Source: Acaryochloris marina MBIC11017 (GTDB lineage Bacteria; Cyanobacteriota; Cyanobacteriia; Thermosynechococcales; Thermosynechococcaceae). Taken from it: DNA of 32,000 nt. The position numbers and the translations under genes are program-made. The notes beneath the pieces are model-generated. The model had not been told where the DNA came from. It ran no database searches and saw only the letters and a program-made list of their open reading frames with translations. The number at the start of each line of letters is the position of its first letter. Position 1 is the first letter of the stretch. Where the stretch lies: assembly GCF_000018105.1 (NCBI RefSeq), contig NC_009929.1:30001-62000 (forward strand), given 5' to 3'. This document shows positions 5,901-28,242 of the stretch, piece after piece.

Positions 5901-6396
5901 GGAAGCAGATGAGATCCTCATGTTGTATAGCTTTAACAATGTCTATCTTTATCTAAAATTGCTATGTAAGTGATGCTCTGTTTTAGATATTGATTGGACT
6001 TTTCTAATCTTTACTAGCATCAATTCCAGTCGTTTTTTCGTATTTGAGGGAGGTATATAGCTTCTGAGTATAATCAACCAAAAGTGTCCAATACATCGCT
6101 ATTTGCACAGATGTACAAAATTAGTGCTCAGCCTATAAAACGCTGAATCTATTGCTGTTAAGTAGTTTTCGGTAATTCTTTCTCTGATTTTCTATTCAAC
6201 AGATGTAAATAATTAGATGCATCGATGCCATTAATTTGGGTTGAGCAATGTACAGCATTATTTGCACACCTATCAACGCCAATTGTTAGATCCATGACTC
6301 CAGAACGGAATAACTGAATCTCAAATCAAGCTGAAGACTCGTGTAATTTCATGGCTTACCCCAGATAATTTAACGATATCTGCCATAAAAACAGCC

Positions 6397-6825
6397 ATGA
6401 CTGAATCTGTAACCCTAACAGCCACAGTAATTGCTAATCTTGCCTTTCAAGAATTCCTAAAAACCAGTGCTGGTGAAGCAGCAAAACAGTTCACTGCTGA
6501 TGCCCTTTCCTTGATGGGGAAACTCCGTCAGAAGATTTGGGATAGGCTACGCGGTAAACATGGCGCAGCAGAACAGGCATTAACCCAGGCAGAGACAGGT
6601 GATCAGAAAGCAATTGAAACTGTTGCTACTCTGCTAGATGTGGAAATGCTAGATGAAACTTTTGCTGGAGAACTACGACAGATAGCCCAAGAAATCAATA
6701 TTCATATCAGCAAGGACAACGACACCCAAGTTCAAAATAACTACGGTGGAACCAACTTCCAAAACAGTATTTCAGGTGGAGAAGTCTATCAAGGCGATAA
6801 CATCACCATCAATAAGACCATTTGA
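6397..6825 (+). CDS. N-terminal helical adaptor-like module (effector-associated-domain-like); upstream part of the interrupted NLR-like gene
   Basis: 142-aa ORF. Its first 100 or so residues are clearly homologous to the N-terminus of the 9569-10525 ORF (MTExxTLxAxVIANLAFQExLKxSAGE...FTADA...LRQKIWxRLRGK). It ends at a TGA (6823-6825) that is in frame with the NB-ARC ORF downstream. Confidence 0.7.
   Translation: MTESVTLTATVIANLAFQEFLKTSAGEAAKQFTADALSLMGKLRQKIWDRLRGKHGAAEQALTQAETGDQKAIETVATLLDVEMLDETFAGELRQIAQEINIHISKDNDTQVQNNYGGTNFQNSISGGEVYQGDNITINKTI
6823..6825 (+). other. Single in-frame TGA (context TGA-CTAG) separating the N-terminal module from the NB-ARC-TPR body
   Basis: ORFs 6397-6825 and 6994-9105 share frame 1. 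Codons 6826-6993 are open and encode the canonical pre-P-loop segment (...NLPRSGVKEFVGRNQKLQDLHEQLQNSQRIAITAIAG). That stretch contains no in-frame ATG, GTG or TTG. Confidence 0.8.
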
Positions 6826-6993
6826 CTAGAGTCGCCTGACCAGGACCGGGCAAAGTTAAATCCTCCTATTGGCATTCCCTCTAACCTTCCCCGAAGTGGG
6901 GTTAAGGAGTTTGTTGGTCGTAACCAAAAACTTCAAGACCTCCATGAGCAATTACAAAACAGCCAACGTATTGCAATTACAGCTATAGCTGGG

Positions 6994-9105
6994 ATGGGGG
7001 GCATTGGCAAAACAGAGCTGGCATTGCAATACGCCATAGCTCAATTAGAACAGGAGCAATACCCCGGAGGAATTTGTTGGCTAAGAGCCAGGGGCCAAGA
7101 GATAGCAACCCAGATAGTGACCTTTGCTCAGACTAAACTGGGTCTTACTTTCCCTGATGGATTAGATGAAAAAGGGCAGGTCGATTATTGTTGGGGACAT
7201 TGGCGAGAGGGAGATGTACTGGTTGTTCTCGATGATGTAACTGAGTTTGATGCAGTTGAACCCTATCTGCCTCCCTCAGATCCTAAGTTCAAAGTATTGC
7301 TGACAACTCGTTTGAACTTAGGCAGCTCTGTGCAGTCACTGTCCATTGAAGAACTAGATGAGGAGAGTGCATTGGCTCTACTTGAAACGCTAGTGGGACC
7401 AGACCGGATTCAATCACAATTGGAGGATGCTAAAACCTTATGTGGTTGGGTCGGTAACTTACCGTTAGGACTAGAGCTGTTGGGACGGTTTCTAGCGAGA
7501 AAATTAGACTGGTCCTTTGAAAAATTGATTGGGCGTCTTGAGTCCAAGAAATTAGCAGCGAAAGCTCTTATAACCAAAGAATCAGGAATGACGGCTCAGT
7601 TAGGGGTAGCTGCTGCATTGGAGTTAAGCTGGGTAGATCTAAGTGAGGCAGAACAAGAACTTGCCTGTTTATTAGGCGTGTTTGCAGTTGCTCCGATTCC
7701 TTGGCATCTGGTTGAAGAATGTCTATCTGATCGGGATAAAGACGATCTGGAGGACATTAGGGATGAAGGTTTAAGAGATAAAAATTTACTCAAACGAGTT
7801 GAAGAGAGAACCTACCAACTCCATCAAATTGTGAAGGAGTTCTTTCGGATTAAGTTGCAAGAATCTTCTGGTAATGGGGAGTCGCTGAAGCAGTCATTTT
7901 GTAAAGCAATGGTGGGAATTGCTCAGGGTATTGGAAACAATCCAACGATTGATGTAATTGCAGGGATGAGTGCCAGCATTCCCCATCTAGAGGAACTTGT
8001 CAGACAATGGATAGACATTCTGAGTGATGATGACTTAACCTGGCCCTATGTCGGCATCGGTCGATTTTATGAAGGGCAAGGGAACTATGGATTAGCTCTG
8101 CCTTTGTATCAAGAATGCCTGGAACAGACAAAAAAAAGATTCGACAGCGAACACCCCTCTGTCGCTCAAAGCCTCAATAACCTGGCATTACTCTACGACA
8201 ACCAAGGACGGTACACAGAAGCAGAACCCCTCTATGTCCAAGCCTTGGAGATGAGACAGAATCTCTTGGGTACCGAACACCCCGATGCCGCAACGAGCCT
8301 CAATAACCTGGCAGTACTCTACTACGACCAAGGGCGGTACACAGAAGCCGAACCGCTCTATTTGCAAGCCTTGGAGATGAGAAAGAAGCTCTTGGGCAGC
8401 GAACACCCCGGTGTCGCTCTTAGCCTCAATAACCTGGCAGCACTCTACACAAACCAAGGGCGGTACACAGAAGCCGAACCGCTCTATTTGCAAGCCTTGG
8501 AGATGAGAAAGAAGCTTTTGGGCAGCGAACACCCCGATGTCGCAACTAGCCTCAATAACCTGGCAGCACTCTACACAAACCAAGGGTGGTACACAGAAGC
8601 CGAACCCCTCTATTTGCAAGCCTTGGAGATGCAAAAGAAGCTCTTGGGCAGCGAACACCCCGATGTCGCTCAAAGCCTCAATAACCTGGCAGCACTCTAC
8701 GACAACCAAGGGCGGTACACAGAAGCCGAACCGCTCTATGTGCAAGCCTTGGAGATGAGAAAGAAGCTCTTGGGCAGCGAACACCCCGGTGTCGCTCTTA
8801 GCCTCAATAACCTGGCAGCACTCTACACAAACCAAGGGCGGTACACAGAAGCCGAACCGCTCTATGTGCAAGCCTTGGAGATGAGAAAGAAGCTCTTGGG
8901 CAGCGAACACCCCGATGTCGCTCAAAGCCTCAATAACCTGGCAGCACTCTACGACAACCAAGGGCGGTACAGCGAGGCAGAACCCCTCTATTTGCAAGCC
9001 TTGGAGATTTACCAGAAGCTCTTGGGCGATGAACACCCAAACACAGTTAAAGTTCAGAGTAATTTTGACGATTGCCGCCGAAGAATAAAGGAGTCGAATA
9101 CTTAG
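6994..9105 (+). CDS. NB-ARC (STAND) NTPase with C-terminal TPR array, NLR-like. The frame is open from 6826, and the listed ATG lies inside the P-loop.
   Basis: NB-ARC motifs are present: Walker A G-MGGIGKTE, Walker B VLVVLDDV, LLTTR, and a GLPL-type motif GNLPLGLELLG. Seven 42-aa TPR units of kinesin-light-chain type follow (SLNNLAxLYxxQGRYTEAEPLY). Confidence 0.85.
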   Translation: MGGIGKTELALQYAIAQLEQEQYPGGICWLRARGQEIATQIVTFAQTKLGLTFPDGLDEKGQVDYCWGHWREGDVLVVLDDVTEFDAVEPYLPPSDPKFKVLLTTRLNLGSSVQSLSIEELDEESALALLETLVGPDRIQSQLEDAKTLCGWVGNLPLGLELLGRFLARKLDWSFEKLIGRLESKKLAAKALITKESGMTAQLGVAAALELSWVDLSEAEQELACLLGVFAVAPIPWHLVEECLSDRDKDDLEDIRDEGLRDKNLLKRVEERTYQLHQIVKEFFRIKLQESSGNGESLKQSFCKAMVGIAQGIGNNPTIDVIAGMSASIPHLEELVRQWIDILSDDDLTWPYVGIGRFYEGQGNYGLALPLYQECLEQTKKRFDSEHPSVAQSLNNLALLYDNQGRYTEAEPLYVQALEMRQNLLGTEHPDAATSLNNLAVLYYDQGRYTEAEPLYLQALEMRKKLLGSEHPGVALSLNNLAALYTNQGRYTEAEPLYLQALEMRKKLLGSEHPDVATSLNNLAALYTNQGWYTEAEPLYLQALEMQKKLLGSEHPDVAQSLNNLAALYDNQGRYTEAEPLYVQALEMRKKLLGSEHPGVALSLNNLAALYTNQGRYTEAEPLYVQALEMRKKLLGSEHPDVAQSLNNLAALYDNQGRYSEAEPLYLQALEIYQKLLGDEHPNTVKVQSNFDDCRRRIKESNT
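8158..9039 (+). repeat. Seven tandem 126-bp (42-aa) near-identical TPR-coding repeats
   Basis: The 126-bp period is read directly from the sequence. Units 3 and 6 differ by a single residue at protein level. Differences cluster at the first 4 residues of each unit and at the LY-xx-Q positions. Confidence 0.9.
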
Positions 9106-9568
9106 CTATTTGTTGATTAATAGCTTTAGGTGTGCAGTAATTATGTATAATCGGCATTTTTAAATTTATTCAATTGCCAAAAATTGAAACCCAGTAAAAT
9201 CGTCAATCTGAGCACTAATTTTGTACATCTGTGCAAATAGCGATGTACTGTACAAAAAGCTTTCATGTCCATTATTTCTTTAAACGCACAAGAATGAGCG
9301 ATTTATAGAATTAGCTGCACAACTTTGAATCGCTACAAACTAAATTCAGAGGCTGATCTGCTGATTTATAGGCAATGATACTCAAGAAGTGGAATTAAAG
9401 TTTTAGCTGCACTTTTTCTGAGAAAAAAATAAATTCTTTAAGGAATTAGTTGCATTATTTCTTCCAATCAGTCGATTCTCTATTGGTCTGAATCTCAAAT
9501 TTCGTTGAAGGGTCGCGTAAATTTATAGCTTTGCCCAGATAATTTAACGATGTCTGCCAAAAAAAGCC

Positions 9569-10525
9569 ATGACTGAACCTATTACCTTGTCAGCCGCAGT
9601 AATCGCTAATCTTGCCTTTCAAGAAATCCTAAAATCTAGTGCAGGTGAGGTTACAAAAAAGTTCACTGCTGATGCAATAGCTAAGATGAGCGAGCTTCGT
9701 CAAAAGATTTGGGCCAGACTAAGGGGTAAGTCTCAAAAAGTTGATGATGCTTTAAAGAATACTGAGCAAGGAGATTCTTCAGCTCTATCAACTATTGCCA
9801 AGAATTTAGATGTAGTGATGGATGAGGACGCTGAGTTTGCATCTCAAGTTCAGGCCATAGCTCAAACTATCAATGCTGGCAAAATTCTTGACCAGAGCAA
9901 TATGACACAGAATCTTTCAGATAATGCCAAGGGTTGGCAGACCAAAGTGGAAGGGGGAGTGGCGTATATTGGAGAAATTCATCAGCAGTTTACTGGAGAT
10001 CCAATACTTAAATACGAGCCTCCAACCATCAATTCTATAAGAGGCTTTCATAACGGCATGCAGTCTTTGGTTTTGGAAGACATTGGAAATGTACCCGTTA
10101 CAATAACTAAGGAAAAACACGAAGGAATTAATGGTGAATGTGATTACACAATTGAATTTGAGATTTTTAATAAAAGTAGAGCGGATCTGAAAATAAAAGC
10201 CATACTTGTCGAAGTCTTGTCTGTAGAACCGATTGAATCGATCATTGACTACATACCCTTATGTGGGTTGGGTGAAGCTCGACTGTATTCTTGCCGAGTT
10301 GATGGACGACCAGGAATATATCGATCGAACTTGTTAGAAAGTACATTTAGTGGATATATATTTCTTCAGAGCGGTGAGCAAGAAACTATCCAAATTGCTA
10401 TTAATACCAAGGATGAAGGGAAATACACGCTACGTTCTTTATTGGAATTATCAAGTGTTGATGGACTGAAGACAATATCAGTTGGTGAGTTTAACAATGT
10501 ACGATTTCTCAAACTTTCGAGATAG
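9569..10525 (+). CDS. Protein with the same N-terminal adaptor-like module as 6397-6825, fused to an unrelated beta-rich C-terminal domain (candidate effector or partner)
   Basis: 318-aa ORF. The N-terminal 100 or so residues are homologous to the NLR N-terminal module. About 95 nt upstream are also conserved at roughly 80 percent (CCCAGATAATTTAACGATRTCTGCCA...GCCATGACTGAA). Confidence 0.7.
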   Translation: MTEPITLSAAVIANLAFQEILKSSAGEVTKKFTADAIAKMSELRQKIWARLRGKSQKVDDALKNTEQGDSSALSTIAKNLDVVMDEDAEFASQVQAIAQTINAGKILDQSNMTQNLSDNAKGWQTKVEGGVAYIGEIHQQFTGDPILKYEPPTINSIRGFHNGMQSLVLEDIGNVPVTITKEKHEGINGECDYTIEFEIFNKSRADLKIKAILVEVLSVEPIESIIDYIPLCGLGEARLYSCRVDGRPGIYRSNLLESTFSGYIFLQSGEQETIQIAINTKDEGKYTLRSLLELSSVDGLKTISVGEFNNVRFLKLSR

Positions 10526-10689
10526 GCTCGATCATGAGAATGCTTTAGCGACAAGAATAGAATAAAAACTATAGCGCGCAGGTGCATCAAAGTATCTGTG
10601 AAAAATGAAGGTCCAGTTTCACTACTTTCCAGTGCCCATGTGTTTCACAAATGTTCGTGTTCACATGCAAGTAGTTGTCCGCTTCTACT

Positions 10690-10860
10690 CGGACTTGTCT
10701 GAGTGTGGTGGTAAGGTCGCACCTTATGCCGGGAGCAATGTTCTTAAACTAGGCCACCGCGTCTAGTTTGAGAATACAGGATAAACCTGTCGTGGCAGCT
10801 ACTAAATTGCCCCCGAGCAAGGGGGAACCCTAGAATCTCAAGGCCAACTCAAATTCTGAT
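10690..10860 (+). ncRNA. Type V-K (Cas12k) tracrRNA-like sequence; boundaries approximate
   Basis: The region is non-coding and structured, with hairpins TAAGGT-CGC-ACCTTA (10712-10726), ACAGG-ATAAA-CCTGT (10776-10790) and CCCCC-GAGCAA-GGGGG (10810-10825). GTGGCAGCTACTAAATTGCCCCCGAGCAAGGGGGAACCCTAG resembles, from memory, the 3' part of published Cas12k tracrRNAs (...CACCCCCGATCAAGGGGGAACCCTCC). Two collinear antiparallel anti-repeat patches are visible. AACCCTA (10826-10832) pairs with TAGGG(G)TT in the repeat. CCAAC-TCAAAT (10844-10854) pairs with ATTTGA(GG)GTTGG in the repeat. Confidence 0.55.
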
Positions 10861-11027
10861 TTCTTTAGATTGACTTGGTGCATTCCTCAAAACCCTCTAT
10901 GATTAAAAACTTTGGTGATTAGCCTCTTATCTTTTTGGATGCTTCTTTGCCAAGGTGATTCAATATGATTGTGATCCGCGATTTAATTGCTCAAAGTCAT
11001 GCCAGGACTAGGCTAATTAGAAGGTGG

Positions 11028-11136
11028 GTTGCAATGACATTTGAGGGTTGGTAGGGGTTGAAAGTCAGATCGGCTCTAGGCCATCGTCTTTTTCAAAACG
11101 TTGCAATGACATTTGAGAGTTAGTTGGGGTTGAAAG
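11028..11136 (+). CRISPR. Mini CRISPR array: two 37-nt repeats separated by one 35-nt spacer
   Basis: R1 at 11028-11064 is GTTGCAATGACATTTGAGGGTTGGTAGGGGTTGAAAG. R2 at 11100-11136 is GTTGCAATGACATTTGAGAGTTAGTTGGGGTTGAAAG, with 3 mismatches to R1. The spacer lies at 11065-11099. The 37/35 geometry and the GGGGTTGAAAG 3' end are typical of V-K repeats. The array lies about 170 nt downstream of the tracrRNA-like region and 174 bp from the element's right tip. Confidence 0.55.
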
Positions 11137-11346
11137 AACGTCGGCTTCCCAAATTCTTTTGTAATCCAGTTTTCTAAAAGATTTTTGTGCATGTAAAACT
11201 TTAAAACTGGAGGTTTTTATTTTCTTTATCTGCTAACTATTGAAAAAACGCAAATTCGTAAATTTTGCAGCTAATTCCTTAAAGCTGTGCGTTTAAAGAA
11301 ATAATGGACATTTCAATTTTTTTTAGATCAACCAATTCTGATTCCT

Positions 11347-11364
11347 AAATTCTGGGTAAGTTTC
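11347..11364 (+). promoter_or_regulatory. Conserved operon-leader box, copy 1 (AAATTCTGGGTAAGTTTC)
   Basis: One of four copies of AATTCTGGGTAA(T/G)(G/T)TT, each 30-55 nt upstream of a backbone gene start (here 11387/11393). Confidence 0.5.
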
Positions 11365-11386
11365 AACAGACCATCACGCAACTCTG

Positions 11387-13999
11387 TTGATCATGCCTCG
11401 ATATCCCAGAAGAATACTCAGCCTACTCCCCGCTGCTGCACTGGCACTGCAATCGTTTCCCGCAGTGGCTCAGATCATCAACCAACAAACCCTAGAAGCA
11501 GCCAACCATAACACCCAAACCCAGGAAGAGGGAACGATACCCGGACTCTACTATGACCCATCTGGTGTTGTGGCTCCAACCTTTGCCAATAGTCAAGCCT
11601 CAGAGACAGCGGGGAGTATTCGCTTACCCGCAGGTTCCCAAGCTCCTTCATTCCTTAACGGTGCATGGCCCGCGAATGCCAGCTCAGATCAAGTTCTCAA
11701 GATCGGTCACCTGAAAGATCATCCGCAGTTTAAGCAGTTTACGGAATTGAATATCAATGAGGTCTTAAAAGCCAGTGGCAAAGACCCTTCAACCGTAACC
11801 CTGTCTGAGGTGCCAATCGCATCAACAATGACAGTGGGAGAGTATCTGCAAATTAATCCTGGTGCTGCTGAGCAGTCCTTAGAAGACGCTCCCGCAGTGG
11901 TGCAATCTGCATTTGGGTACTACGAGGATGAACCCCTACTGCACGAACCCATTGATCAAACAGACATTGTTTTTATAGAACAGAAAGCATCCAACCCAGA
12001 GATATCTGATATCCCCGCTGAAGATTTACTACAGGGAGACTGGGGTGAAGCCTTCACCCAAGAGGAACAGAGTCAGCTATCGAAGACCCTCAGCAAGGTT
12101 AATGAACGTCTGCGAAAACTACCCTTAAAACAGCTTATTCCTTTAGCTCAAGGGATTGTCAGTGGCGATTGGGATACAGTCAAAAAGCAGGCCAAAGATC
12201 TAGCAATCAAGGAAGGTTCTAAAGTTCTGATCAAAGAGCTGATGAAGAATCCCAAAATCGCCAAAGCTATCAAGGATTTACCCTTGGGAACCTTACCCCT
12301 AGATAAGCTGGGATTGGCTGATGCGCCAGGGGTGGGAGAGACAGCGATAAAGGATATCCCAGGTTCTGAAGATAAGACCCTTAATCAAGTCCCTGGTCTT
12401 AAAGATGTGCCTCTTGACCAGATTGATTTAGCGTTGGCGTTGAGCTTCACTCGACTGGATTTGCTGGGGCGAATTGACACGACTGATGCTGCCGCAGTGG
12501 TCGATAACATCGACTATGTGATCAGTGGTGGGACCAAAGACCAAATTCCAAAACCTGCACCCTGTAAAATCGATGGGAAAGATACCAAGAACTGTCGTCA
12601 CTTTGAGTTAGATAACGTTGATGGGGGTGGCGAACCCACGAAGTTATCAGGGCAAGCCTGGATTCAAGGGCCTGATCAGATGGTGCCCGGTGGGCAAGGC
12701 TGGTTGAGAATTATAGCCAATGGCAAGGAAGTCACGGGGATTAAGCCTTGGGTGGCAGGCAATGTCAAGCTGTACCTGGAAGACATGAGGGAAGGGTCAG
12801 GGGATGAGGTGGGATCTGCCCGGTTGTCCACGGCATGGCAGTTTGGCTATTCAGATCCAATTACTGGAAGTCATTACACCCCTCATTTCATCAGGATTCC
12901 AACCCCCTGGCGCATTAAAGAAGGTGGAATCATGTTGCTTCTAGCTCGATCTGGGGGCATTCCTGATGCAATCCGTAATCTCCAGCCCAGTCAACAGCAG
13001 TTTTGCAGGGAACCTACATTGGTTGCCTCAGCACAAACGAACAATGCCACCGATTCAAATCAGACGACTGGTGGTGCTGATGGCAGCTCACCCCCCCATA
13101 GTGAACAACATCATATAAATCAGTATTTGGCCCGCATTGCTTATGGTGAATCTACTGGAGGTACTGATATTGGGCCTCATCCCGATACTGGTGCATATGG
13201 TGAGTACCAGTTTATACAGAAGAGTCGAGATACGCTTTATACCAGGACGGGTATTGATGCTTGGTCTGAAAGTAAAGAAGAACGTGATCGTGCTGCATTA
13301 GCTTGGATTGATATTTATGGTCAGGAAGTCGGCCATGACATCATCAGCTATATTCGTTCAGGAAATTTTGAGGCTGCTGATTATTTGTTGGGGCGTAATC
13401 AGTTCACCAGTCTCCCTGGAGGAGCTGAAGATGTGAAGTGGAATGATCCAGTTGCCCTTGAAGTCTATGGTCCTAATGGCAATGCTCCAGTTACACCTAC
13501 AGGTGCAAGTGCATCTTCCGGGGTTCCATTCTGTCAACCAACCAATGGCTCAGCTACTTTTGCCCAAGGTCCAGCACCGGAAGCAGGGCAGGTAAATGCA
13601 AGTATTTATCAAGCTGCAAGACAAATGTATGGGTTTGATACTTCAAGCGGGCCTGAAGGAGGAAGTCAAGCATGTGCTTGGGCTGTTGATCATGTCCTGG
13701 CTAAGGCAGGTATCGAACCGATGCGTACAGATAATGTCTTAAACGTCTTGGATAAGATGAAATCAGGAAGAGGTACTAGAATTAATTCTGGACAAGCTCA
13801 ACCAGGGGACATTATTCTCTCGAAGGGGTATGACCATATTGGAATATGCATGACGGCTGGTTGCACTGAAGTACTATCAAACTCATCCAGTAAAGCTTCA
13901 TTCTCTTGGCGATCTGATGGAACTTTCGATGGATGGTATGATCGCTCACGTTTTTTACATGAGGCACCTACGGAAGAAATTTGGAGAATCCAACGATGA
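11387..13999 (+). CDS. Secreted bifunctional cell-wall hydrolase for transfer: lysozyme/SLT-like domain plus C-terminal NlpC/P60-CHAP-like cysteine peptidase
   Basis: 870-aa ORF (TTG at 11387; the ATG at 11393 is the more likely start). It has a signal peptide, LSLLPAAALALQSFPAVAQ. The motifs AYGESTGG...GAYGEYQF resemble glycoside-hydrolase motifs. The C-terminus has a Cys...His pair (SQACAWAV ... GYDHIGIC) typical of NlpC/P60-CHAP. Confidence 0.65.
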   Translation: MIMPRYPRRILSLLPAAALALQSFPAVAQIINQQTLEAANHNTQTQEEGTIPGLYYDPSGVVAPTFANSQASETAGSIRLPAGSQAPSFLNGAWPANASSDQVLKIGHLKDHPQFKQFTELNINEVLKASGKDPSTVTLSEVPIASTMTVGEYLQINPGAAEQSLEDAPAVVQSAFGYYEDEPLLHEPIDQTDIVFIEQKASNPEISDIPAEDLLQGDWGEAFTQEEQSQLSKTLSKVNERLRKLPLKQLIPLAQGIVSGDWDTVKKQAKDLAIKEGSKVLIKELMKNPKIAKAIKDLPLGTLPLDKLGLADAPGVGETAIKDIPGSEDKTLNQVPGLKDVPLDQIDLALALSFTRLDLLGRIDTTDAAAVVDNIDYVISGGTKDQIPKPAPCKIDGKDTKNCRHFELDNVDGGGEPTKLSGQAWIQGPDQMVPGGQGWLRIIANGKEVTGIKPWVAGNVKLYLEDMREGSGDEVGSARLSTAWQFGYSDPITGSHYTPHFIRIPTPWRIKEGGIMLLLARSGGIPDAIRNLQPSQQQFCREPTLVASAQTNNATDSNQTTGGADGSSPPHSEQHHINQYLARIAYGESTGGTDIGPHPDTGAYGEYQFIQKSRDTLYTRTGIDAWSESKEERDRAALAWIDIYGQEVGHDIISYIRSGNFEAADYLLGRNQFTSLPGGAEDVKWNDPVALEVYGPNGNAPVTPTGASASSGVPFCQPTNGSATFAQGPAPEAGQVNASIYQAARQMYGFDTSSGPEGGSQACAWAVDHVLAKAGIEPMRTDNVLNVLDKMKSGRGTRINSGQAQPGDIILSKGYDHIGICMTAGCTEVLSNSSSKASFSWRSDGTFDGWYDRSRFLHEAPTEEIWRIQR

Positions 14000-14349
14000 G
14001 AAAGTTATTATTTGTAACTGCGTTAACTGTCCTAACTATCTTTAGCGGTATTCAAACTGCTCTAGCTAATGAGGAACAGCAGATAGCTAATGCTCTTATT
14101 CAGTCACTCCCTAAACCTGCTGAAGTAGAAAAGGTTGTTGTTTCAGGTTCTTATGCCTTAGTTAAGTGGGTAGGTGGCCCTACTGGAGGTATGGCAACTT
14201 TGATCAACACCGATAACGGGTGGCAGGTGATGTCGCAAACTACTCGTGGCTGGCCGTCTATCGAAATCTTTGCTAAAGAACGTGGAATGACTATTGAAGA
14301 GGCAGAGGAATTACTTGACGCCTATGATCCTAGTTGGCGTCAGTGGTAA
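13996..14349 (+). CDS. Small secreted protein
   Basis: The ATG at 13996 overlaps the upstream stop (ATGA). It has a signal peptide, MRKLLFVTALTVLTIFSGIQTALA. The ORF track begins 5 codons earlier at a TTG. Confidence 0.55.
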   Translation: MRKLLFVTALTVLTIFSGIQTALANEEQQIANALIQSLPKPAEVEKVVVSGSYALVKWVGGPTGGMATLINTDNGWQVMSQTTRGWPSIEIFAKERGMTIEEAEELLDAYDPSWRQW

Positions 14350-14383
14350 CGATAAACTTACTAATTTACCTTCAACACTCTCT

Positions 14384-14399
14384 AATTCTGGGTAATGTT
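14384..14399 (+). promoter_or_regulatory. Conserved operon-leader box, copy 2 (AATTCTGGGTAATGTT)
   Basis: Exact 16-mer lying 23 nt upstream of the coupling-protein start codon. Confidence 0.5.
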
Positions 14400-14421
14400 C
14401 TGGTAGTTTCCCAAAACTGCC

Positions 14422-16203
14422 ATGAGTCACCATACTGAACAACCTATACAACCCCCTCAGCAACCTAGTCCCCAGATTGACTTTCAGGTGTATGTGCTGG
14501 GTGGTCTTTTCCTTGTCATCCTCGTCCTCGTCGCCATCACCAAAGGAGAAATAGGACACAAGAAGCAAAAGCTTGGAGATGCCCGCACGGCAAAAGATAA
14601 TGAGATGAGGAAGGCTCAACATCTCGCCTATGATGCTCTTGAGAAACGTGAGCGGAACAAGATTACGCTGTGGGCAGGGGAACCTAAAGGGCTGACGATT
14701 GATAACGAGAATCGTGAGATATTCATACCCCGCGATCTGAATTCCTGGATCTTCTCCTACCTTGAGGAGCATTTTCTAACCTTTGGTTCTAGTGGTTGCG
14801 GTAAGACCTTCTCCCTTATGGCCCCCCTGCAACGAGCCATGATTAAGTTAGGGTTACCCCTGTGTGTTTTCGATGCCAAAGGCCATGAAGAGACCGAGGA
14901 TCAGGCTTGCCCATCTTCAGAGATTGCGGGCTATGCCAGACTTCATGGCTACAAGGTGAAGATCATCGCTCCTGGCGATAAAGATTCTGATGTCTTTAAC
15001 ATCTTCGACATGATGGAGGCTAAGGATGATAGACCTGCCTACGAAGACAAAGATAACGCCTATGTGATTTCTGATGTTCTCAATGAGAACATGCAGATGA
15101 ACAATGCAGATTCAGGTGATCAGTTCTTCCCCTTGGCCTCGAAACAACTGATGCAGGCCATGTTTATGTGGGCCAAGATGCTTGATCCAGATGGGGATGA
15201 ATTAATCCTCGCCTACTATCTCCTCAAGCGGGTGGCTCAAGTTGGTGCGGCTGGGATTGCTGCCTTAGATCTTCCCCCTTATGTTCAAATTGCGTTTGAC
15301 CAATTTCTCGTCAGTGCGGGAAGTCCTGAGACAGCAGCCAGTATTGCGGGTACAGCTTTGATCTTGTTTGGGCGAATGATTACCCCAGCGACCACAGCAA
15401 CATTCTGTGGCAAGTCCACGGTGGATTTGAATGTCACTGGCAAGACACTGGTTATCTTCAGATTGAATCCCAAGATGAAAGCTGCTACGGGTCCAATGTT
15501 GGCAACCACTATTCAGTGTTTCCTTCTCTCGAACTGCTATACAGCTCGTAAACAACCCTTGGCCTTTTTCTTAGATGAGTTCCAGATGATCAAGATCTGT
15601 GAAATTCAAAAGATTCTGACCGTTGCTCGATCCAATGGTGTGAGCCTCCTCTTTGCCACACAGGGAATGAGCTTTATTGAAGAGACTTATGGTGAAAAGA
15701 GAGCCATTGGCATTGTGGAAGGGTGTAAAACCCAAGTCCTAGGCCAGCTCAACGGGAACAAAGTCGCTGAATACTACGGTAAGCAGTTGGGCAAATCAGA
15801 GGTTGTCACTCGCAGTAAATCAAAATCAACTGGGAAATCCTCGTCAACTTCTAGGAATGATAGTCCTCATGCCAAAGATTTAGTTTCAATGGGTGAATTA
15901 ATGGGATTGCCCCAAGGCTCCTTCTACGTGCTGAGTCGAGCGATTGGTAATAAGAGGCTGGCTCGTATTCCCATGAGACGGAACTTCGTTATTCCTAAGT
16001 GGGAAACGGATGATGCCAAGCGAGGGGTTAAAGAATGGTTCAAATATCGAAAGGTTGCCCGCAAGCGTAGCAAGGCCAAGTCGATGTCAAACGAGGAGAT
16101 GATCCGGTATCGAGAAATGTCCGTTGCGATATTGCCAGATCCTAAAGATGATGACGACGATGATGGAGGCGATACCTTAGCAAAGGGAATTTCATCACTG
16201 TGA
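14422..16203 (+). CDS. Type IV coupling protein (VirD4/TraG family)
   Basis: 593-aa ORF with an N-terminal TM helix (VYVLGGLFLVILVLVAI), Walker A FGSSGCGKTFS and Walker B FFLDEFQM. The C-terminal tail is basic and then acidic. Confidence 0.8.
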   Translation: MSHHTEQPIQPPQQPSPQIDFQVYVLGGLFLVILVLVAITKGEIGHKKQKLGDARTAKDNEMRKAQHLAYDALEKRERNKITLWAGEPKGLTIDNENREIFIPRDLNSWIFSYLEEHFLTFGSSGCGKTFSLMAPLQRAMIKLGLPLCVFDAKGHEETEDQACPSSEIAGYARLHGYKVKIIAPGDKDSDVFNIFDMMEAKDDRPAYEDKDNAYVISDVLNENMQMNNADSGDQFFPLASKQLMQAMFMWAKMLDPDGDELILAYYLLKRVAQVGAAGIAALDLPPYVQIAFDQFLVSAGSPETAASIAGTALILFGRMITPATTATFCGKSTVDLNVTGKTLVIFRLNPKMKAATGPMLATTIQCFLLSNCYTARKQPLAFFLDEFQMIKICEIQKILTVARSNGVSLLFATQGMSFIEETYGEKRAIGIVEGCKTQVLGQLNGNKVAEYYGKQLGKSEVVTRSKSKSTGKSSSTSRNDSPHAKDLVSMGELMGLPQGSFYVLSRAIGNKRLARIPMRRNFVIPKWETDDAKRGVKEWFKYRKVARKRSKAKSMSNEEMIRYREMSVAILPDPKDDDDDDGGDTLAKGISSL

Positions 16204-17145: not shown

Positions 17146-18877
17146 GTGCCAGCTCCTATTAAACCTCAACAGGTTCATCTTTATATGCAGACAAAACAAT
17201 CCGGCTCTTCTCAAGAAACAGCAGCTGCTAAAGCTGGCATTTCTACCCGCACAGCCCACCGCATTGATAGTGGTACTCATCGTCCCCAACGCGGCCGCCC
17301 TCATGACTGGAAAACCCGTGAAGATCCGCTGGATGGATTATGGGAATTAGAACTTGAGCCGATGTTAGAGCGTGAGCCTCGATTAGAAGCGACTACTCTA
17401 TTTGAGACCTTACAAGAGAACCATCCTGGGCAATATGATGACAAGATCAGAACCGTGCAACGCCGAACCGCTAAATGGAAGGCAGCTCATGGCAAGCCCA
17501 AAGAAGTGATGTTCAAAATTCAACATCATCCTGGGGAGATGGGACAGTCAGACTTCGCTCAGCTCAAAGGTTTCAGTGTGACGGTTCAGGGTGAAGCCTT
17601 TCACCATATCTTGTATCACTATCGACTGAGCTATAGCGGCTGGCAGTACGTGCAGGTGATTCAAGGCGGAGAAAGTTTTATCGGCTTATCCCAAGGGCTA
17701 CAAAATGCTCTAACCGCCTGTGGTGGCGTGCCCAAGATTCATCGTACCGATAGTCTGAGTGCGGCTTATCGCAATACTGGCGGCCGCAATCCCCAGCTGA
17801 CCCAGTTGTATTCGACTCTGTGTGACCATTACCGGATGCAGCCAACACGCAACAATCTGGGTGTCTCTCATGAGAATGGCGGAATAGAGGGGTCTCATGG
17901 CTATTTCAAACGACGCCTGTGCCAAGCCCTGTATCGTCGAGGCAGCTTTGACTTTGACTCGGTAGCTGAGTATCAGCAGTTCATCGAGCAAGTCATCGCC
18001 AAGCTGAATGCCAAGTGCCAAAAAAAGGTTTGCACTGGAGCTGCCCACCTTACAGCCCTTGCCCAGATACCGAACTCCTGATTATGAAGTGCGCAGTGCC
18101 AAAGTCAGCTGCAATAGCACGATTGCCGTCCGCTGTGTCCTTTACACAGTCCCCTCTCGCTTAATTGGCCACCGCTTGAAATTACACCTATACCATGACC
18201 GCCTTGTCGGTTTCTTAGGCACCACTCCCGTAGTGGAATTGGCGCGGGTCCATGTCCATGGCTCTGAGAAGAAAAGACGCGCTCGCAGCATCGATTACAA
18301 GCATGTGGCAGAAAGTCTCAGGAGAAAGCCAAACGCGTTTCTCTACTGCCAATGGCAATCAGAGCTACTGCCCAATCTTCAGTGGCATCAGCTGTGGGAA
18401 TCACTCAAAGCTAATTTTGAGCAGGACCAGGCCGCACGATTAATCACCGAAGCCCTCTATATCGCTGCAACTCAAGATCAAGAATCTCAGGTGGCTGACT
18501 ACCTACAAACTCAACTGGAACAGTCCACCCTGACCTTGAGCAGATTAAAACAAGCCTTTGAATTCAAGCTCTCGACTGAGCAATATCCTGACGTCACCTC
18601 ACAACAGCACGATTTATCTGACTATGATCAACTCCTCCACAGCAGACCCGGACAACCCATACCAGTTGCTGATGACAACCCTAAAACAGTTGCGGTTGAG
18701 GCATTTCCTCGACGAGTGGCAGAGCATCGAGCATCAAGCGACTCAGGAGAATTGGTCCTACGCCCAGTTTCTGTTGGCTTTAGCTCAAGGCGAAGCCAGC
18801 CGTCGGGAGCAGAATCGGATTTCACGCGCTCTAACCGAAGCGCAGCTGCCTTACGGAAAGTCCTGGACCAATTTTGA
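17146..18877 (+). pseudogene. istA: IS21 istA transposase, frameshifted at an A7 run
   Basis: ORF 17146-18081 (GTG start; HTH; DDE-type segments GQSDF, HRTDS, ENGGIEGSHGYFK) continues in the +1 frame as ORF 18008-18877 (...KKRFALELPTLQPLPRYR...). The switch maps to AAAAAAA at 18020-18026. The last 85 or so codons overlap istB and look like out-of-frame read-on. Confidence 0.7.
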
Positions 18878-19421
18878 GTTTGCCCATGTTCCCACCCTTA
18901 ATCCAGCTGCTCTCATGGAGTTTGCCCAAACGACTCACTGGCTAGAGTCCGGTAGCAACATTCTAATTTTTGGGCCGAGCGGAACAGGGAAAACACACGT
19001 CAGCTCTGCATTAGGAGCTTCTATTATTGAGTTGGGTAAGCGAGTAAAATTTGTCACAGCCACAACCCTGGTGCAACAACTACAGCTGGCCAAACTTCAA
19101 TTGGAATTGCAGAGTCTCTTGTCCAAACTTGACCGCTATGATCTGCTTATCATTGATGATCTCGGTTATGTCCAAAAGTCCGATGTTGAAACCTCGGTAC
19201 TGTTTGAGTTGATTGCTCACCGGTATGAGCGAAAGAGCCTACTCATCACGGCTAATCAACCTTTCAGTCAATGGGACAGCATCTTTCCTAACTCAATGAT
19301 GACCGTGGCTGCCATTGATCGCTTAATTCACCACGCCACCATTTTCGAGATGCAAGCAGAAAGCTTCCGCAAACAAGAAGCGGCCAAACACACAGCCAAG
19401 TCTCAAAAGACTGACAGCTGA
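18624..19421 (+). CDS. istB: IS21 IstB AAA+ helper ATPase
   Basis: Walker A is IFGPSGTGKTH and Walker B is LLIIDDLGY. The start is taken at the ATG at 18624 (MINSST...), next to the conserved IstA C-terminal DLSDYDQLL. The track ORF starts at 18558. Confidence 0.8.
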   Translation: MINSSTADPDNPYQLLMTTLKQLRLRHFLDEWQSIEHQATQENWSYAQFLLALAQGEASRREQNRISRALTEAQLPYGKSWTNFEFAHVPTLNPAALMEFAQTTHWLESGSNILIFGPSGTGKTHVSSALGASIIELGKRVKFVTATTLVQQLQLAKLQLELQSLLSKLDRYDLLIIDDLGYVQKSDVETSVLFELIAHRYERKSLLITANQPFSQWDSIFPNSMMTVAAIDRLIHHATIFEMQAESFRKQEAAKHTAKSQKTDS

Positions 19422-19639: not shown

Positions 19640-21148
19640 ATGAAGTTAGAACCAAAAAGTTTGGCCTATCTAATTGACATTAAACAGAATGCTATCGAAT
19701 CCAAGGATCAGGGTGAAGTGGTTCGTGCAACCGTCGCTGATCCTTGGGATATTGAACCTGACCAAGTGGTTGATCAAGCCCTTGATAAATTAGAGCCACT
19801 AGAATCAGAAGCTATTGAAGTAGATGCAGTCGTAGTCGAACCTGAGCAACTACCCTCCCAAGCCCAATCGAATGAGCGCCCTCTCGTGAATGAGTTCATT
19901 GAGAAAGCAGGGGAGAATATCAAGCAGGGTGCAAATGACTTTGTTGCCCAAGCCAATGCGTTCCTTGCAGAGAACATTCAGGTGGAGTACCAGCCTATCC
20001 CTCAACAGGATGGCACTGTAGCTTTGGCTGTGGATACCCCTTCACTACTCACTCAGATGCAGTTAGCGGGTGGGGAATATGCTCAAGCAGCTAAAGAAAA
20101 AATGCAAAGTCTTGCACCACAGCAATATGAGCGGGTTTCCGAGGCAGTCAAAAACACCCAAGAGCGTGTGAAGAGTGCCTTAGAATCGGTGTCTGATACC
20201 GTGCAAGGAAGATTGAAGGAACCCTCATTAGGTCAACGTATTGGGGAGCTTGAGCACAGCGTAGGTCTACGGCTTGACAGCATGGGGCTAGGAATTGAGG
20301 ATCTATTCCAAAAAGTTTTTGATATTGAGCTAGATAAGCATGGGACTGAGTTTGCACTCACACGAGAGATTGGGGAGTTTAAGGTTGAAATCGAAGCATT
20401 GCGCTCTCAGGTTGGTGGACTAGAAGGCCAAATCTCGGCCATGCAGCAGCAACAAGTGAAATCCCAGGAGATGATTGCAGCACTGCAATCCCCCAAACCG
20501 CAGCTCAATAATCCTCGTCTCAGTCAATGGCAGTCTAACTTTGTATCCACCATGAAAGACCGATTCCAGGCAGTCAAACAGTACATTGGCGAGAAGATCA
20601 ATCAGGTCAAGGCTAAAGTGTCAGATTTGGTAGAGTCCTTCAAACACAAAATGGTTGAGCGTTTTCAGCCCATTGCTGACCGTCTAAGACCAGTTTATGA
20701 ACAGGCTCAAGATCTGAAGCAGAAAACAGGTGAGCAAATCAATCAAGTCAAGGCCACTGTTGGCGAGAAGGTCGATCACGCTAAACAGTTCGTGGGTGAG
20801 AAGGCGATGGACTGGCAGGCTCAAGCTCTAGCTGCCACTGCAACCTATGTACTCGCTCAGCAAGGCAAGCAAACCCCACAGGGCACCACCATCTATGAAG
20901 GGCAGCATTTTGACTTTCACAGGAACCAGGGTAACTCTTTGCTGATTGTCGATAAGGCAACTCAACAGCCTGTTTATAAAAATGGTGAGTTCAACCAGAA
21001 TGCCCCCAAGGATGTGAAGGACAAGCTTGTCAAAGCAGCTCAAACGACTCAAAAAGGGATAGAGCAAAAGCAAGCTCACAAACAAGCTAAGGAACAAGCA
21101 CAGACTCAGAAGCCAAAGCCAAAAGTGGCAGCAGCCGCTAGGCGCTAA
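19640..21148 (+). CDS. Coiled-coil-rich hypothetical protein with a Lys/Gln-rich tail
   Basis: 502-aa ORF with repeated helical segments (QVKAKVSDLVE..., QVKATVGEKVD...). Its 3' end overlaps the convergent relaxase stop by 11 bp. Confidence 0.55.
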   Translation: MKLEPKSLAYLIDIKQNAIESKDQGEVVRATVADPWDIEPDQVVDQALDKLEPLESEAIEVDAVVVEPEQLPSQAQSNERPLVNEFIEKAGENIKQGANDFVAQANAFLAENIQVEYQPIPQQDGTVALAVDTPSLLTQMQLAGGEYAQAAKEKMQSLAPQQYERVSEAVKNTQERVKSALESVSDTVQGRLKEPSLGQRIGELEHSVGLRLDSMGLGIEDLFQKVFDIELDKHGTEFALTREIGEFKVEIEALRSQVGGLEGQISAMQQQQVKSQEMIAALQSPKPQLNNPRLSQWQSNFVSTMKDRFQAVKQYIGEKINQVKAKVSDLVESFKHKMVERFQPIADRLRPVYEQAQDLKQKTGEQINQVKATVGEKVDHAKQFVGEKAMDWQAQALAATATYVLAQQGKQTPQGTTIYEGQHFDFHRNQGNSLLIVDKATQQPVYKNGEFNQNAPKDVKDKLVKAAQTTQKGIEQKQAHKQAKEQAQTQKPKPKVAAAARR

Positions 21149-24100: not shown

Positions 24101-25172
24101 GCAACTCTTCATAGGTGAAGGGCGGGCGCTGATCAAAGACCCATTGCTCAATTAGCTCATGGCAAAACTCAGCATTGCGCTCCTGTAGGTGGGCAATGGC
24201 ACTATCTACGTATTCACGGGTTAATTCAGGCCGATGGACCCAGGTGGATTTCTTAGCAGGCTTGGGAAGCGTGAACCCATTGATGATCAGTTCCTCAACC
24301 CATCCCTTCATCTTTTCAGGGATATTGGTGTTGTCTTCTTTTTTATTGCGGGTTCTCAGGACTGCATTCTGGCGGTTTTCCTGGGTATCTTCTAGACCGT
24401 ACTTCTTCAGATACCGCTCTACTTCCTGAGTTCTTTTCTTGAAATGCCAAACCGTTTCAGGGCTAAGTCCCTCAATGGTGCCATCAGGCCGCACGGTATA
24501 CCCCAGTTCCGCTAGACCCTTATCAATAAAGTGGCGGTAGATGGAGCCAAGAGACAGAGATTTAAATATCGCCTCATTCGATAGCGATTGCCATTTCCCG
24601 TTGATCTGGGTAGCATTCATCACCACGATATGGGTATGCAGCGCTGGGTCTGAATAGGTTTTGCCGTCAATGGTGACAGGCCGGGCAGTAGCGTGATTGA
24701 TGAAAGCCCCGATCAGGGAATTTGTATTGACCAAGGAGCGCTGCCCATTCCCATGTCTGACACGGGTTTGAGTATACCGGGACTGGAAGATATCGAAGAC
24801 TTTCTGCAAGGCTTGCTCATGCAGCTCGATAATCCTGCGGTCCCCACCGACCAAGGCGAGGATCGAGGCTTCTTTGCCAGGTCCAAAGGTGAGATCTATC
24901 CCTAACCGCTCTTGGCCGTTCGTGGGTTTCTTGCGTAGGCGTTTGCCTGTTTGAGGGTGGTGTCCATAGAACAGCTTCTTGAAGACCTTCTGATTGATGA
25001 CACCTTTGAGGTTCAGACTGTCTGCGCCGTTTCCATACCACTTGCAAGGCGATACTACTGGATCTTTGCCCGGTGCGTAGTACTCGTCCTCACTGTTCTT
25101 TAGTGCTTCGTCTTCTGTGTAGTACTCCTCAATCGCAGCATTGCCTTTGTTGATGAGCGTTGGCCTGAACAT
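21138..25172 (-). CDS. MOBF-family relaxase (TrwC/TraI-like) fused to a RecD-like helicase and a C-terminal Toprim (DUF3854-like) domain
   Basis: The N-terminus carries paired-Tyr motifs (EEYYTEDE...EDEYYAPGKD), ERLGIDLTFGPGK and the His triad NHATAR...DPALHTHIVVMN, which matches the TrwC pattern. The helicase has Walker A GLSGVGKTT and Walker B WWIIDEAGM. The C-terminus has Toprim-like ITEGGKKT and FMYDQD. Confidence 0.9.
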   Translation of the reverse strand: MFRPTLINKGNAAIEEYYTEDEALKNSEDEYYAPGKDPVVSPCKWYGNGADSLNLKGVINQKVFKKLFYGHHPQTGKRLRKKPTNGQERLGIDLTFGPGKEASILALVGGDRRIIELHEQALQKVFDIFQSRYTQTRVRHGNGQRSLVNTNSLIGAFINHATARPVTIDGKTYSDPALHTHIVVMNATQINGKWQSLSNEAIFKSLSLGSIYRHFIDKGLAELGYTVRPDGTIEGLSPETVWHFKKRTQEVERYLKKYGLEDTQENRQNAVLRTRNKKEDNTNIPEKMKGWVEELIINGFTLPKPAKKSTWVHRPELTREYVDSAIAHLQERNAEFCHELIEQWVFDQRPPFTYEELQTEIANHPQLIRTKNDTYTTQYALDREEKTRQLWAAGQHKFTPITTGKIEFNKMLNADQRNAVRNTLASSNRLIIWHGLSGVGKTTTLSELQKHIEAINPDIQIKGYSPTTKAAGVLAEELGIETTTVSGLITRKLDTSPNQWWIIDEAGMKSAEQGLEVLKRAEAVNARVLLVGDINQNSSVNAGSPQRSLMKAGAETYHIKTILRQKRIVQRRAVELVSIGKPLEALKLLNEYGHVTEVADHRTRAAQVAEKYLSLKPKERKQTLIVTGTHRERKAITILIREGLRAEGVIKGEDQALRQLVDKRLTTEQTRHLRYYKTDDYVIPNENFSSRLQKGKLYKVVGVDEASGVVRVVSQGGQYSSFDPAKLENKTVFTAQKINVAVGDQLRWTRNNLHGNNGDQFKVTAVEGHRIQINHKKWIDTSKPLELDYSITSTTHAAQGQTYYRVIFSGTIDPTSSREPFYVAISRQKHELYIFTENYEGMCRQVQCSAAQLNPRELLGLDRELELPEFTPTAFWTPQTAMAEPPKSGIAAHHWEELIEGSGIHPDLIELNCHSLKGDSVYEYLLEDKIAELGAGQVWVEQQQKLRAKIEHCWDGGFWIGAGVDAQSLDDPILSTWGSFKPDHPRYDSSRERFQKYEHPQGRSRGIFLTEVPDWFKEYICKKYDTTSAPGDHFWKIIRDNPQIPIKITEGGKKTLSITSQGHVVIGLPGVNAGYRSKDDEGIKLPERRLNPDLAIFAVPGREITFMYDQDTKPSTVANVRRDMVRTGMLLEDKGCTVKFSKWSSLYKGADDLIVGASPEMLELAIDAAQPLAVATAKHYEYEYQKLYEFVVRRDGELPRKVMNLEIFIEAYTRGTTEDAYKTIEAINPDLNREELMKAALQHQDKKRNAATTVVPILEELAKTKGTKYRHTYQYRVDKWLIATGKRGLTVRDTDTGRILLQTKMGRLTRVSARPGVIKLFKSTVKQAKVKPIQRAQKNRKLSA

Positions 25173-28237: not shown

Positions 28238-28242
28238 GTGTT

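Follow-up and report, generated by a model that had tools for sequence, protein, structure and literature searches.

A 2-kb Tn7-like element on an Acaryochloris plasmid with a type V-K-like guide-RNA module and no transposition genes

CRISPR-associated transposons (CASTs) are intensively studied as tools for genome insertion, but their natural spread and decay are poorly known. The arrays of type V-K CASTs consist of 37-bp repeats and spacers of about 36 bp (Hsieh and Peters 2021, bioRxiv 10.1101/2021.02.06.429022; Ziemann 2025), and the anti-repeat of their trans-activating CRISPR RNA (tracrRNA) carries the motif AACCCnCCC (Ziemann 2025). The attachment (att) guides of these systems are truncated and match a tRNA over about 17 nt (Hsieh and Peters 2021). 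A nearby tnsBCQ operon was missing for 130 of 282 cas12k genes, which the authors ascribed to inactivation and decay (Hsieh and Peters 2021). Partly deleted cyanobacterial Tn7-like elements have been found in multiple identical copies, for which mobilisation in trans was proposed (Chacon Machado and Peters 2025, PMC11837452). Here, a 32-kb stretch of DNA (the window) from plasmid pREB4 (226,680 bp) of Acaryochloris marina MBIC11017 was analysed. It contains a Tn7-like element of 2,045 bp, element B (9266-11310), with an RNA module that, judged by its sequence, is a genuine homologue of a type V-K (Cas12k) tracrRNA and its CRISPR repeats.

The reading of element B as a V-K CAST reduced to its ends and an intact, collinear guide-RNA module is well supported. 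Both Tn7-like ends would have been kept in this reduction, together with the guide module, its parts still arranged and spaced as in the native state: a promoter, a tracrRNA of about 290 nt, a leader, one repeat-spacer unit and a terminal repeat with a tRNA-Gly(CCC)-type guide, followed after 174 nt by an end of the left-end (LE) type. The genes cas12k, tnsB, tnsC and tniQ would have been lost, and a chimeric cargo open reading frame (ORF) is present instead. Taken as a whole, element B is probably a non-autonomous deletion derivative of a V-K CAST that has retained its guide module and is mobilised in trans. An earlier note on this DNA, made from the sequence alone, had proposed a guide-RNA-only, non-autonomous CAST derivative. 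The part of that proposal concerning a guide module within Tn7-type ends and the lack of protein genes has held, while an inert remnant stays a live rival to the rest. A V-K-type transposon with ends and guide RNAs but no protein genes is new as far as full-text searches of the literature go; no paper describing such an element was found, in agreement with what the note had supposed.

The guide-RNA module

The most conspicuous part of the tracrRNA-like gene is the hairpin segment CCCCC-GAGCAA-GGGGG-AACCCT at 10810-10831 on the plus strand, of which the conserved hairpin proper occupies 10810-10825. The hairpin pattern CCCCCGANCAAGGGGGAACCC (21 nt, one N) was scanned across 185,579 species genomes, one per species, and 38 loci were obtained. 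Thirty-five of these are cyanobacterial and include that of Scytonema hofmanni UTEX 2349, the host of ShCAST; two non-cyanobacterial loci have no repeats and are chance matches. Where the sequence suffices, the hairpin is usually preceded by an ORF of 590-650 aa that stops about 223 nt before it; ShCas12k is among these ORFs. Most loci have their first repeat end, GTTGAAAG, at +253 to +257 from the hairpin and, from there on, a periodicity of about 72 nt; the repeat ends in the window lie at +247 and +319. Around the hairpin, the window is identical to the ShCAST tracrRNA at 30 of 34 positions.

Since the hairpin had been the bait, it was left out of two covariance models built from canonical tracrRNA segments. 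The top match of model R1 (middle segment) in the whole window, on both strands and with filters off, is at 10630-10809 (+) with 13.9 bits and an E-value of about 0.013, and it stops exactly at the hairpin. The top match of model R2 (5' segment), again in the whole window and on both strands, is at 10561-10627 (+) with 17.5 bits and an E-value of about 0.018. It aligns AUAGCG-CGCAG, the P1 helix and CUGUGAAAAAUGAAGGU, the last of which is identical to a Coleofasciculus tracrRNA at 16 of 17 positions. As the two top matches abut and are collinear directly in front of the hairpin, they are not due to chance. The likeness to Cas12k guide scaffolds, which the earlier note had pointed out, was in this way borne out by the match to ShCAST, the 35 cyanobacterial hairpin loci and two models that never saw the hairpin. 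The second-best match of R1 (28239-28328) was rejected as a tracrRNA because it is caused by a perfect 15-bp hairpin, located at 28245-28292 on the minus strand and centred on the cyanobacterial HIP1 palindrome GCGATCGC.

The tracrRNA homologue, as delimited by the covariance models, the hairpin and the anti-repeats, covers about 10566-10860 on the plus strand, with an approximate 3' boundary. It begins near 10566 and not at 10690 as the note had it, by which the 5' third and the -10 box had been missed. A consensus scan placed a promoter-like site (ATGAGA, an 18-nt spacer and TAGAAT) at 10534-10563 (+), directly upstream of the gene. Its -10 box TAGAAT is at 10558-10563, and (T)AGAAT is also found about 5-8 nt before AATAGCGCC in many canonical loci. 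The 295-nt region folds with a minimum free energy of -99.4 kcal/mol (z = -4.19), and none of 200 shuffles was as stable; the corresponding z-score of ShCAST is -2.4. No Rfam family matches the tracrRNA region, because there is no V-K tracrRNA model in Rfam. A lineage-specific hairpin scan of metagenomes returned nothing window-like and just a Scytonema-type locus resembling the V2 class. As in V-K tracrRNAs, the anti-repeat of the window, AACCCUAG, is situated beside the conserved hairpin. Both anti-repeat patches claimed earlier are present together with the hairpin: AACCCTA (10826-10832, +) pairs with 11052-11059, and CCAACTCAAAT (10844-10854, +) pairs with 11039-11051.

The array of element B consists of repeat R1 (11028-11064, +; GTTGCAATGACATTTGAGGGTTGGTAGGGGTTGAAAG), spacer 1 of 35 nt (11065-11099, +) and the terminal repeat R2 (11100-11136, +), the positions at which the note had read them. 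The repeats have a period of 72 nt and are identical at 34 of 37 positions (92%), R2 having three substitutions relative to R1; their last 11 nt are identical, and both end in GGGGTTGAAAG. With a length of 37 nt, GTTGCAAT at the 5' side and GGGTTGAAAG at the 3' side, they are built like canonical V-K repeats. The note had advised that both guides be searched for targets, which gave a divided result. Spacer 1 has no protospacer in the window or in the Acaryochloris plasmid loci, and its matches in PLSDB and among phages are at chance level. The segment behind R2 carries AACGTCGGCTTCCCAA(A) at 11137-11153 (+), a candidate homing guide resembling the D-arm and anticodon arm of tRNA-Gly(CCC).

When the last two bases of R2 are included, AG|AACGTCGGCTTCCCAA matches tRNA-Gly(CCC) at 17 of 18 positions, the compared genes being those of Burkholderia plasmid pM7012 and a Roseomonas plasmid, both assigned to tRNA-Gly(CCC) by ARAGORN; these are proteobacterial tRNAs and not that of the host. 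The likeness ends after about 17 nt, which is also the case for V-K att guides. In canonical loci, the tracrRNA is followed by the array, a last GTTGAAAG unit and, usually after about 150-180 nt, the transposon terminus; a tRNA gene identical in sequence to the last guide lies about 47 nt past that terminus on the opposite strand. By this order, the array-proximal end corresponds to what the literature calls the target-proximal LE. The distance from the end of R2 to the terminus at 11310 is 174 nt, as compared to 176 nt in ShCAST and 149-180 nt in most canonical loci. By its sequence and position, guide 2 resembles a guide for homing to tRNA-Gly(CCC), in which case GAACGTCGGCTTCCCAA is the candidate segment to be expected in the host tRNA-Gly(CCC) gene; a caveat is that it sits behind a full-length 37-nt repeat and not behind a truncated one.

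Ends, cargo and sibling insertions

Element B is flanked by a 5-bp target-site duplication (TSD), TTTCA, that can be read at 9261-9265 and at 11311-11315. Its terminal inverted repeats (TIRs), TGTCCATTATTTCTTTAAACGCACA at 9266-9290 (+) and its counterpart at 11286-11310 (-), are complementary at 25 of 25 positions, so that the Tn7-type ends assigned earlier to 9266-11310 are confirmed. In V-K CAST nomenclature, the end at 9266-9290, distal to the array, is the right end (RE) equivalent, and the array-proximal end is the LE equivalent. A search for repeat families in the window yielded three subterminal repeats of the AATTAGCTGCA(C) type in the distal end (9300-9320, 9392-9412 and 9436-9460, +), which from their sequence are putative TnsB-binding sites; the motif resembles the GACATTAATTCTTTAAA sites in the ends of the V-K CAST of Gloeothece PCC 7822. 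The array-proximal end has subterminal repeats at 11187-11204 and 11260-11284 (-), seen as inverted-repeat pairs; both ends bear repeats of the AATTAGCTGCA type. The TGT termini, the several subterminal sites and the 5-bp TSD are those of V-K CASTs. The ends are tied to the V-K family by the last 60 nt on the array side, which are identical to the Gloeothece PCC 7822 LE at 37 of 60 positions (z = 3.2; 3/1000 shuffles); TAATTC(T/C)TTAAA and TAATG(T/G)ACA are common to both.

These intact TIRs and this TSD enclose no transposase gene, as is characteristic of a non-autonomous transposon. When 21 Cas12k proteins were compared with the window by six-frame tblastn, the best E-value was 0.09, and no cas12k was found upstream of the tracrRNA. 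The TnsB, TnsC and TniQ proteins of the Gloeothece PCC 7822 CAST also gave a best E-value of 0.09, and Pfam and NCBIfam searches detected no cas12k, tnsB, tnsC or tniQ in the 32 kb; the claim that none of these genes is present in the window was upheld. In most of the 35 cyanobacterial tracrRNA loci, cas12k is intact or pseudogenised, the exceptions being one tracrRNA disrupted by an insertion sequence (IS) and a few loci that are truncated where the contig or the analysed stretch stops. The absence of cas12k beside an intact tracrRNA is therefore unusual.

The canonical place of cas12k is taken by the cargo ORF318 (9569-10525, +; ABW32544.1 / WP_012167821.1), the stop codon of which lies about 45 nt before the start of the tracrRNA. 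For residues 1-138, the homologues are the small partners in NB-ARC/TPR cassettes and adjoin NB-ARC/TPR genes; no homologue was found for residues 139-318, and the protein has no Pfam or NCBIfam match. A Cas12k remnant was considered and rejected, as there is no similarity to Cas12k and the homologues cover the N-terminus only. Homology of the ORF318 region to a related element on plasmid pREC3 (see below) ends at 9981. Because homologues exist for residues 1-138 only and the pREC3 homology stops at 9981, ORF318 is probably a chimera, made at a deletion or recombination junction near 9981.

Element B has two siblings, the first of which had been missed by the earlier note. Element A (6085-9254, +; 3,170 bp) is a gene-less Tn7-like element in tandem with B and in the same orientation, 6 bp to its left. 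It was recognised by its 47-nt inverted repeat (95.7%) and its TSD AAAAG at 6080-6084 and 9255-9259, and its right end is identical to that of B at 95 of 150 positions (z = 7.6). Its cargo consists of ORF142 (6397-6825) and an NB-ARC/TPR (NLR-like) gene (6994-9105). The second sibling, on pREC3 of strain MBIC10699, has a B-like distal end and the same junction between end and small ORF (91% over 9255-9981), a tns-less junction made up of the end, about 300 nt and the small ORF. It has the last 140 nt of the array-proximal end in common with B, and an NB-ARC/TPR gene and no tns genes in its interior. Its TSD is AAAAA, its position differs by 3 bp from that of B in the homologous intergenic region, and its terminus is degenerate (6 of 25 positions substituted). 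Neither a tracrRNA nor an array was found in element A or in the pREC3 element. Cassettes of a small ORF (about 142 aa) and an NB-ARC/TPR gene recur on Acaryochloris plasmids (among them pREC3, 12001-15784) and on metagenomic plasmids, some inside B-type transposon ends and others without recognisable ends; they are probably conflict or defence cargo.

The recurrent insertion site is a further addition to what had been noted before. All three elements have the same orientation and are inserted within about 10 bp of each other with three different TSDs, so the gene-less form has been inserted independently (AAAAA in pREC3, AAAAG for element A), as expected of a non-autonomous transposon. Just past the array-proximal end of B and upstream of an 870-aa conjugation-region gene lies a block (11349-11400) that is near-identical in the window and pREC3 and is the putative target of the three insertions. 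The minus-strand GTN motifs at 11369-11371 and 11375-11377 are 58-70 bp from the three insertion points. This falls in the distance range of V-K CASTs and suggests, by analogy, that the block is the recognised target, with TGTTGAAACTTACCCAG and ATGGTCTGTTGAAACTT as candidate target sequences. The spread of several bp would fit RNA-guided insertion better than insertion with the precision of TnsD. Among other plasmids, the same insertion site was found in pREC3 only. As the tns-less junction is common to elements with different TSDs, the gene-less form has most likely been mobilised in trans. The rightmost position of B, nearest to the presumed target, and its perfect ends fit its being the latest arrival.

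Weighing mobility against decay

A mobile element B would be moved as a gene-less form by V-K-type TnsB, TnsC and TniQ (plus Cas12k) acting in trans. This machinery would recognise the conserved block upstream of the conjugation-region gene and insert the element at a distance of about 58-70 bp from it, the LE-type end being the nearer one. Transcription of the tracrRNA and the CRISPR RNAs (crRNAs) would start from the conserved promoter, and these RNAs, with a compatible Cas12k, could load this protein and lead it via guide 2 to insertion beside tRNA-Gly(CCC), whereas guide 1 would direct loaded Cas12k to a target of its own. Mobilisation in trans to a preferred plasmid site can reasonably be inferred from the sequences of the siblings. 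Use of the RNAs by a helper Cas12k, be it for homing to tRNA-Gly(CCC) or for redirection of the helper, is possible.

A number of observations weigh against a non-autonomous derivative mobilised in trans. Neither guide matches the window, the flanks of B or the related plasmids, and no internal 17-mer beats chance at the flanks, which means that the insertion of B was not directed by its own guides. No tRNA gene is present beside either end, nor is there an insertion 60-66 bp from the protospacer-adjacent motif (PAM) of an own-guide protospacer. A GTA PAM for the tRNA-Gly guide is off by one base, unless the last G of the repeat is the first guide base. Each covariance score is weak by itself (E about 0.01-0.02). 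The tracrRNA is about 50-70 nt longer than the canonical ones with a divergent middle third, and its lineage is represented by this one sequence, too few for a covariation analysis. The search for a helper covered PLSDB plasmids, the species-genome scan and protein searches, the MBIC11017 chromosome lying outside its scope. ShCas12k and Gloeothece TnsB found nothing above about 28% identity on the Acaryochloris plasmids of PLSDB, the best 120 matches of either protein search include no entry named as a Cas12k or V-K-type TnsB of Acaryochloris, and no Acaryochloris locus appeared in the species-genome hairpin scan. The Acaryochloris plasmids of PLSDB did not yield an autonomous partner sharing the ends of B either, and literature searches brought up neither a paper that connects Acaryochloris to Cas12k or Tn7-like elements nor a report of a V-K CAST in this genus.

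The strongest competing explanation is that B is an inert relic that was reduced recently. A full-length V-K CAST would have been inserted at this site, its tnsBCQ and cas12k genes would have been deleted or replaced in situ, and the tracrRNA and array would now be decaying in an immobile element. Such a history, which is possible but on the unlikely side, agrees with the lack of detected helper genes in the accessible Acaryochloris data, the absence of spacer targets, the extra insertions in the tracrRNA, and the chimeric ORF318, which points to a recombination or deletion junction near 9981. Repeats differing at 3 of 37 positions are also in keeping with decay, arrays of canonical loci being near-identical, as is the degenerate terminus of the pREC3 sibling; an intact TSD and intact TIRs, moreover, would outlast an internal deletion of a full-length CAST in situ. 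It is harder to reconcile with the tns-less junction in pREC3, which has a different TSD at a 3-bp offset and makes the gene-less form seem older than at least two insertions. The perfect 25-bp TIRs of B, its conserved -10 box, its strongly structured RNA and its rightmost place in the tandem pair, which implies that B is the newest, likewise speak for a mobile derivative.

The opposite extreme is an active guide-only satellite, the tracrRNA and crRNAs of which load the Cas12k of a co-resident CAST and either steer its transposase or compete with the guides of the helper. A complete and collinear RNA module with a conserved promoter and a homing-type guide is what such a satellite would need, the siblings give evidence of gene-less forms transposing in trans to a preferred site, and mini-arrays of mobile elements that exploit host Cas proteins provide a precedent (PMC11656645). 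A weak hint comes from two independent Logan assemblies with ORF318, which start at 9301 or 9312 in the transposon end and both stop at window position 10652. These breaks would fit a k-mer branch at 10623-10652, in the 5' region of the tracrRNA, and thereby another copy of these sequences in those genomes. No exact copy of B was seen at another place, and exact-protein look-ups gave short Logan contigs only. Nevertheless, an active satellite is unlikely: no helper was found in the accessible Acaryochloris data, the present insertion site is matched by neither guide, element A and the pREC3 element use the site without a tracrRNA or array, so that on-board guides are not needed for movement or for the choice of this site, and the tracrRNA lineage has been seen once. 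The fullest version of this idea, a natural protein-less mini-CAST satellite with its own tracrRNA, a free guide and a tRNA-homing guide that hijacks a helper Cas12k-TnsBC-TniQ for both movement and its own choice of targets, is no more probable and equally doubtful.

Two further explanations question the module itself. The 72-nt period could have arisen by plain tandem duplication, and the structure upstream of it could be a chance hairpin or a non-coding RNA of another kind. In favour of this, there are just two repeats, TCGGCT is common to both post-repeat segments (a caveat already raised in the earlier note), and the shuffle test of the tracrRNA:repeat duplex energy was not significant (z = -0.06). 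That test is without power, as the ShCAST positive control fails as well (z = -0.4). With TCGGCT included, the spacers are no more alike than expected by chance (p about 0.3 for their global alignment versus shuffles), while the repeats are 92% identical, so a simple tandem duplication does not apply and the caveat falls away. As the hairpin and its flanks, the 5' module, the ends and length of the repeats and all spacings match those of Cas12k loci, this explanation is effectively refuted. Very improbable, too, is an array-targeting Tn7-like transposon that has inserted into a pre-existing CRISPR array, the array then being target and not cargo. Cyanobacterial examples of such transposons exist, and partly degraded ones may move in trans (PMC11837452). 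In the case of B, the tracrRNA and both repeats lie inside the TIR and TSD boundaries, no repeat is found outside its ends, and that family encodes tnsAB-tnsC-tnsD and carries no cargo (PMC11837452), while none of these genes was found here.

In conclusion, element B is probably a V-K CAST derivative that lost its protein genes, kept its guides and is moved in trans. An ends-plus-guides element of this kind would show that guide modules can be maintained, and perhaps spread, independently of the proteins. Should it be active, it would be the first non-autonomous CAST with guides on board, a natural design for systems with all RNA on the donor and a case of parasitism on CASTs. If the satellite reading were true, hyperparasites of RNA-guided transposons that compete via guide RNAs would exist. 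Even as a relic and nothing more, the element documents clearly how a CAST is reduced. The traces of V-K CASTs are extended to Acaryochloris and to a divergent, longer tracrRNA showing which parts of the scaffold are indispensable, and the recurrent insertion site on conjugative plasmids bears on the horizontal spread of V-K elements.

Plasmid setting and comparison with known systems

Pfam and NCBIfam searches showed that element B is surrounded by a conjugative-plasmid backbone. Among its genes are a TraG-type coupling protein (14422-16203) and a TrwC/MobF relaxase (21138-25172, minus strand), and an IS21 element with istA and istB is located at 17146-19421. The istA gene seems to be split into two overlapping ORFs (17146-18081 and 18008-18877), after which istB follows. 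A Mu-transposase_C match among the ORFs at 17146-19421 was rejected as a TnsB because it belongs to this IS21-family element. A tRNA-like gene at 28730-28829 (minus strand; Rfam, 46.9 bits) has a 32-nt insert in the anticodon loop and was not called by ARAGORN. The sequence GTTGCACACCGACCGTTGAAAG is found 38 nt downstream of it (28671-28692, minus strand). It has the V-K-repeat-like start GTTGCA and the end GTTGAAAG, yet it is only 22 nt long, and its orientation is unlike that of a V-K attachment site; it may be due to chance or be a remnant.

Some other V-K loci deserve mention in their own right. Contig CALRKB020000020.1, labelled as a metagenome-assembled genome of Rhizobium sp. Q54, contains a Cas12k ORF of 635 aa together with a canonical tracrRNA, an array of nine repeats and a gene for tRNA-Asp; it is probably of cyanobacterial origin and was misbinned. 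In Nostoc carneum NIES-2107, one V-K locus is intact, and a second has unrelated sequence in place of the 5' half of its tracrRNA. In four other loci (L008, L024, L028 and L034), a fragmented cas12k is present beside an intact tracrRNA and arrays. Two loci (L035 and L047) have the same hairpin and an array of at least seven repeats but a wholly different upstream RNA, and their Cas12k ORF ends about 555 nt upstream; the tracrRNA of these is probably of the V-K_V2 type of Ziemann et al. 2025.

The closest relatives of element B are the V-K CASTs proper, such as ShCAST, AcCAST and AnCAST. They have in common with it a homologous tracrRNA with the 5' AUAGCGC...CUGUGAAAAAUGA.GGU module, the closing helix, the CCCCCGANCAAGGGGG hairpin and the AACCC anti-repeat; 37-nt repeats ending in GGGTTGAAAG, spacers of about 35 nt and a tRNA-like terminal guide; the same distance between last guide and LE; Tn7-like ends with a 5-bp TSD; and a cyanobacterial host. 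In contrast to these systems, element B is only 2 kb in size and is without cas12k, tnsB, tnsC and tniQ. It is located upstream of a plasmid conjugation-region gene and not at a tRNA attachment site, its tracrRNA is divergent and about 50-70 nt longer, and its terminal guide is behind a 37-nt repeat whereas theirs are behind a truncated repeat of about 13 nt. The degraded V-K CASTs (Hsieh and Peters 2021) resemble B in their partial loss of genes and in having kept ends, array and att guide. These elements retain cas12k and are situated at tRNA sites, while B has lost cas12k, is compact, and has perfect ends and siblings that were inserted repeatedly.

Outside the V-K group, the partly deleted elements described by Chacon Machado and Peters (PMC11837452) are, like B, non-autonomous cyanobacterial members of the Tn7 family that occur on plasmids and have intact ends permitting trans-complementation. 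They depend on TnsAB, TnsC and TnsD, insert into CRISPR arrays and have no guide RNAs, whereas B carries its guide module inside. Viral CRISPR mini-arrays and solitary repeat units (PMC11656645) likewise have one or two guides, no cas gene and effectors in trans. Their role is in interference or competition with host defence and they have no tracrRNA, while the RNAs of B are those of a transposition system and are located inside a transposon. A laboratory mini-CAST donor plasmid (pDonor, LE-cargo-RE, with single guide RNA and proteins supplied from a helper plasmid) has, like B, two ends and no transposition genes; B differs from it in being natural and in having its guide RNA genes on the donor instead of on the helper.

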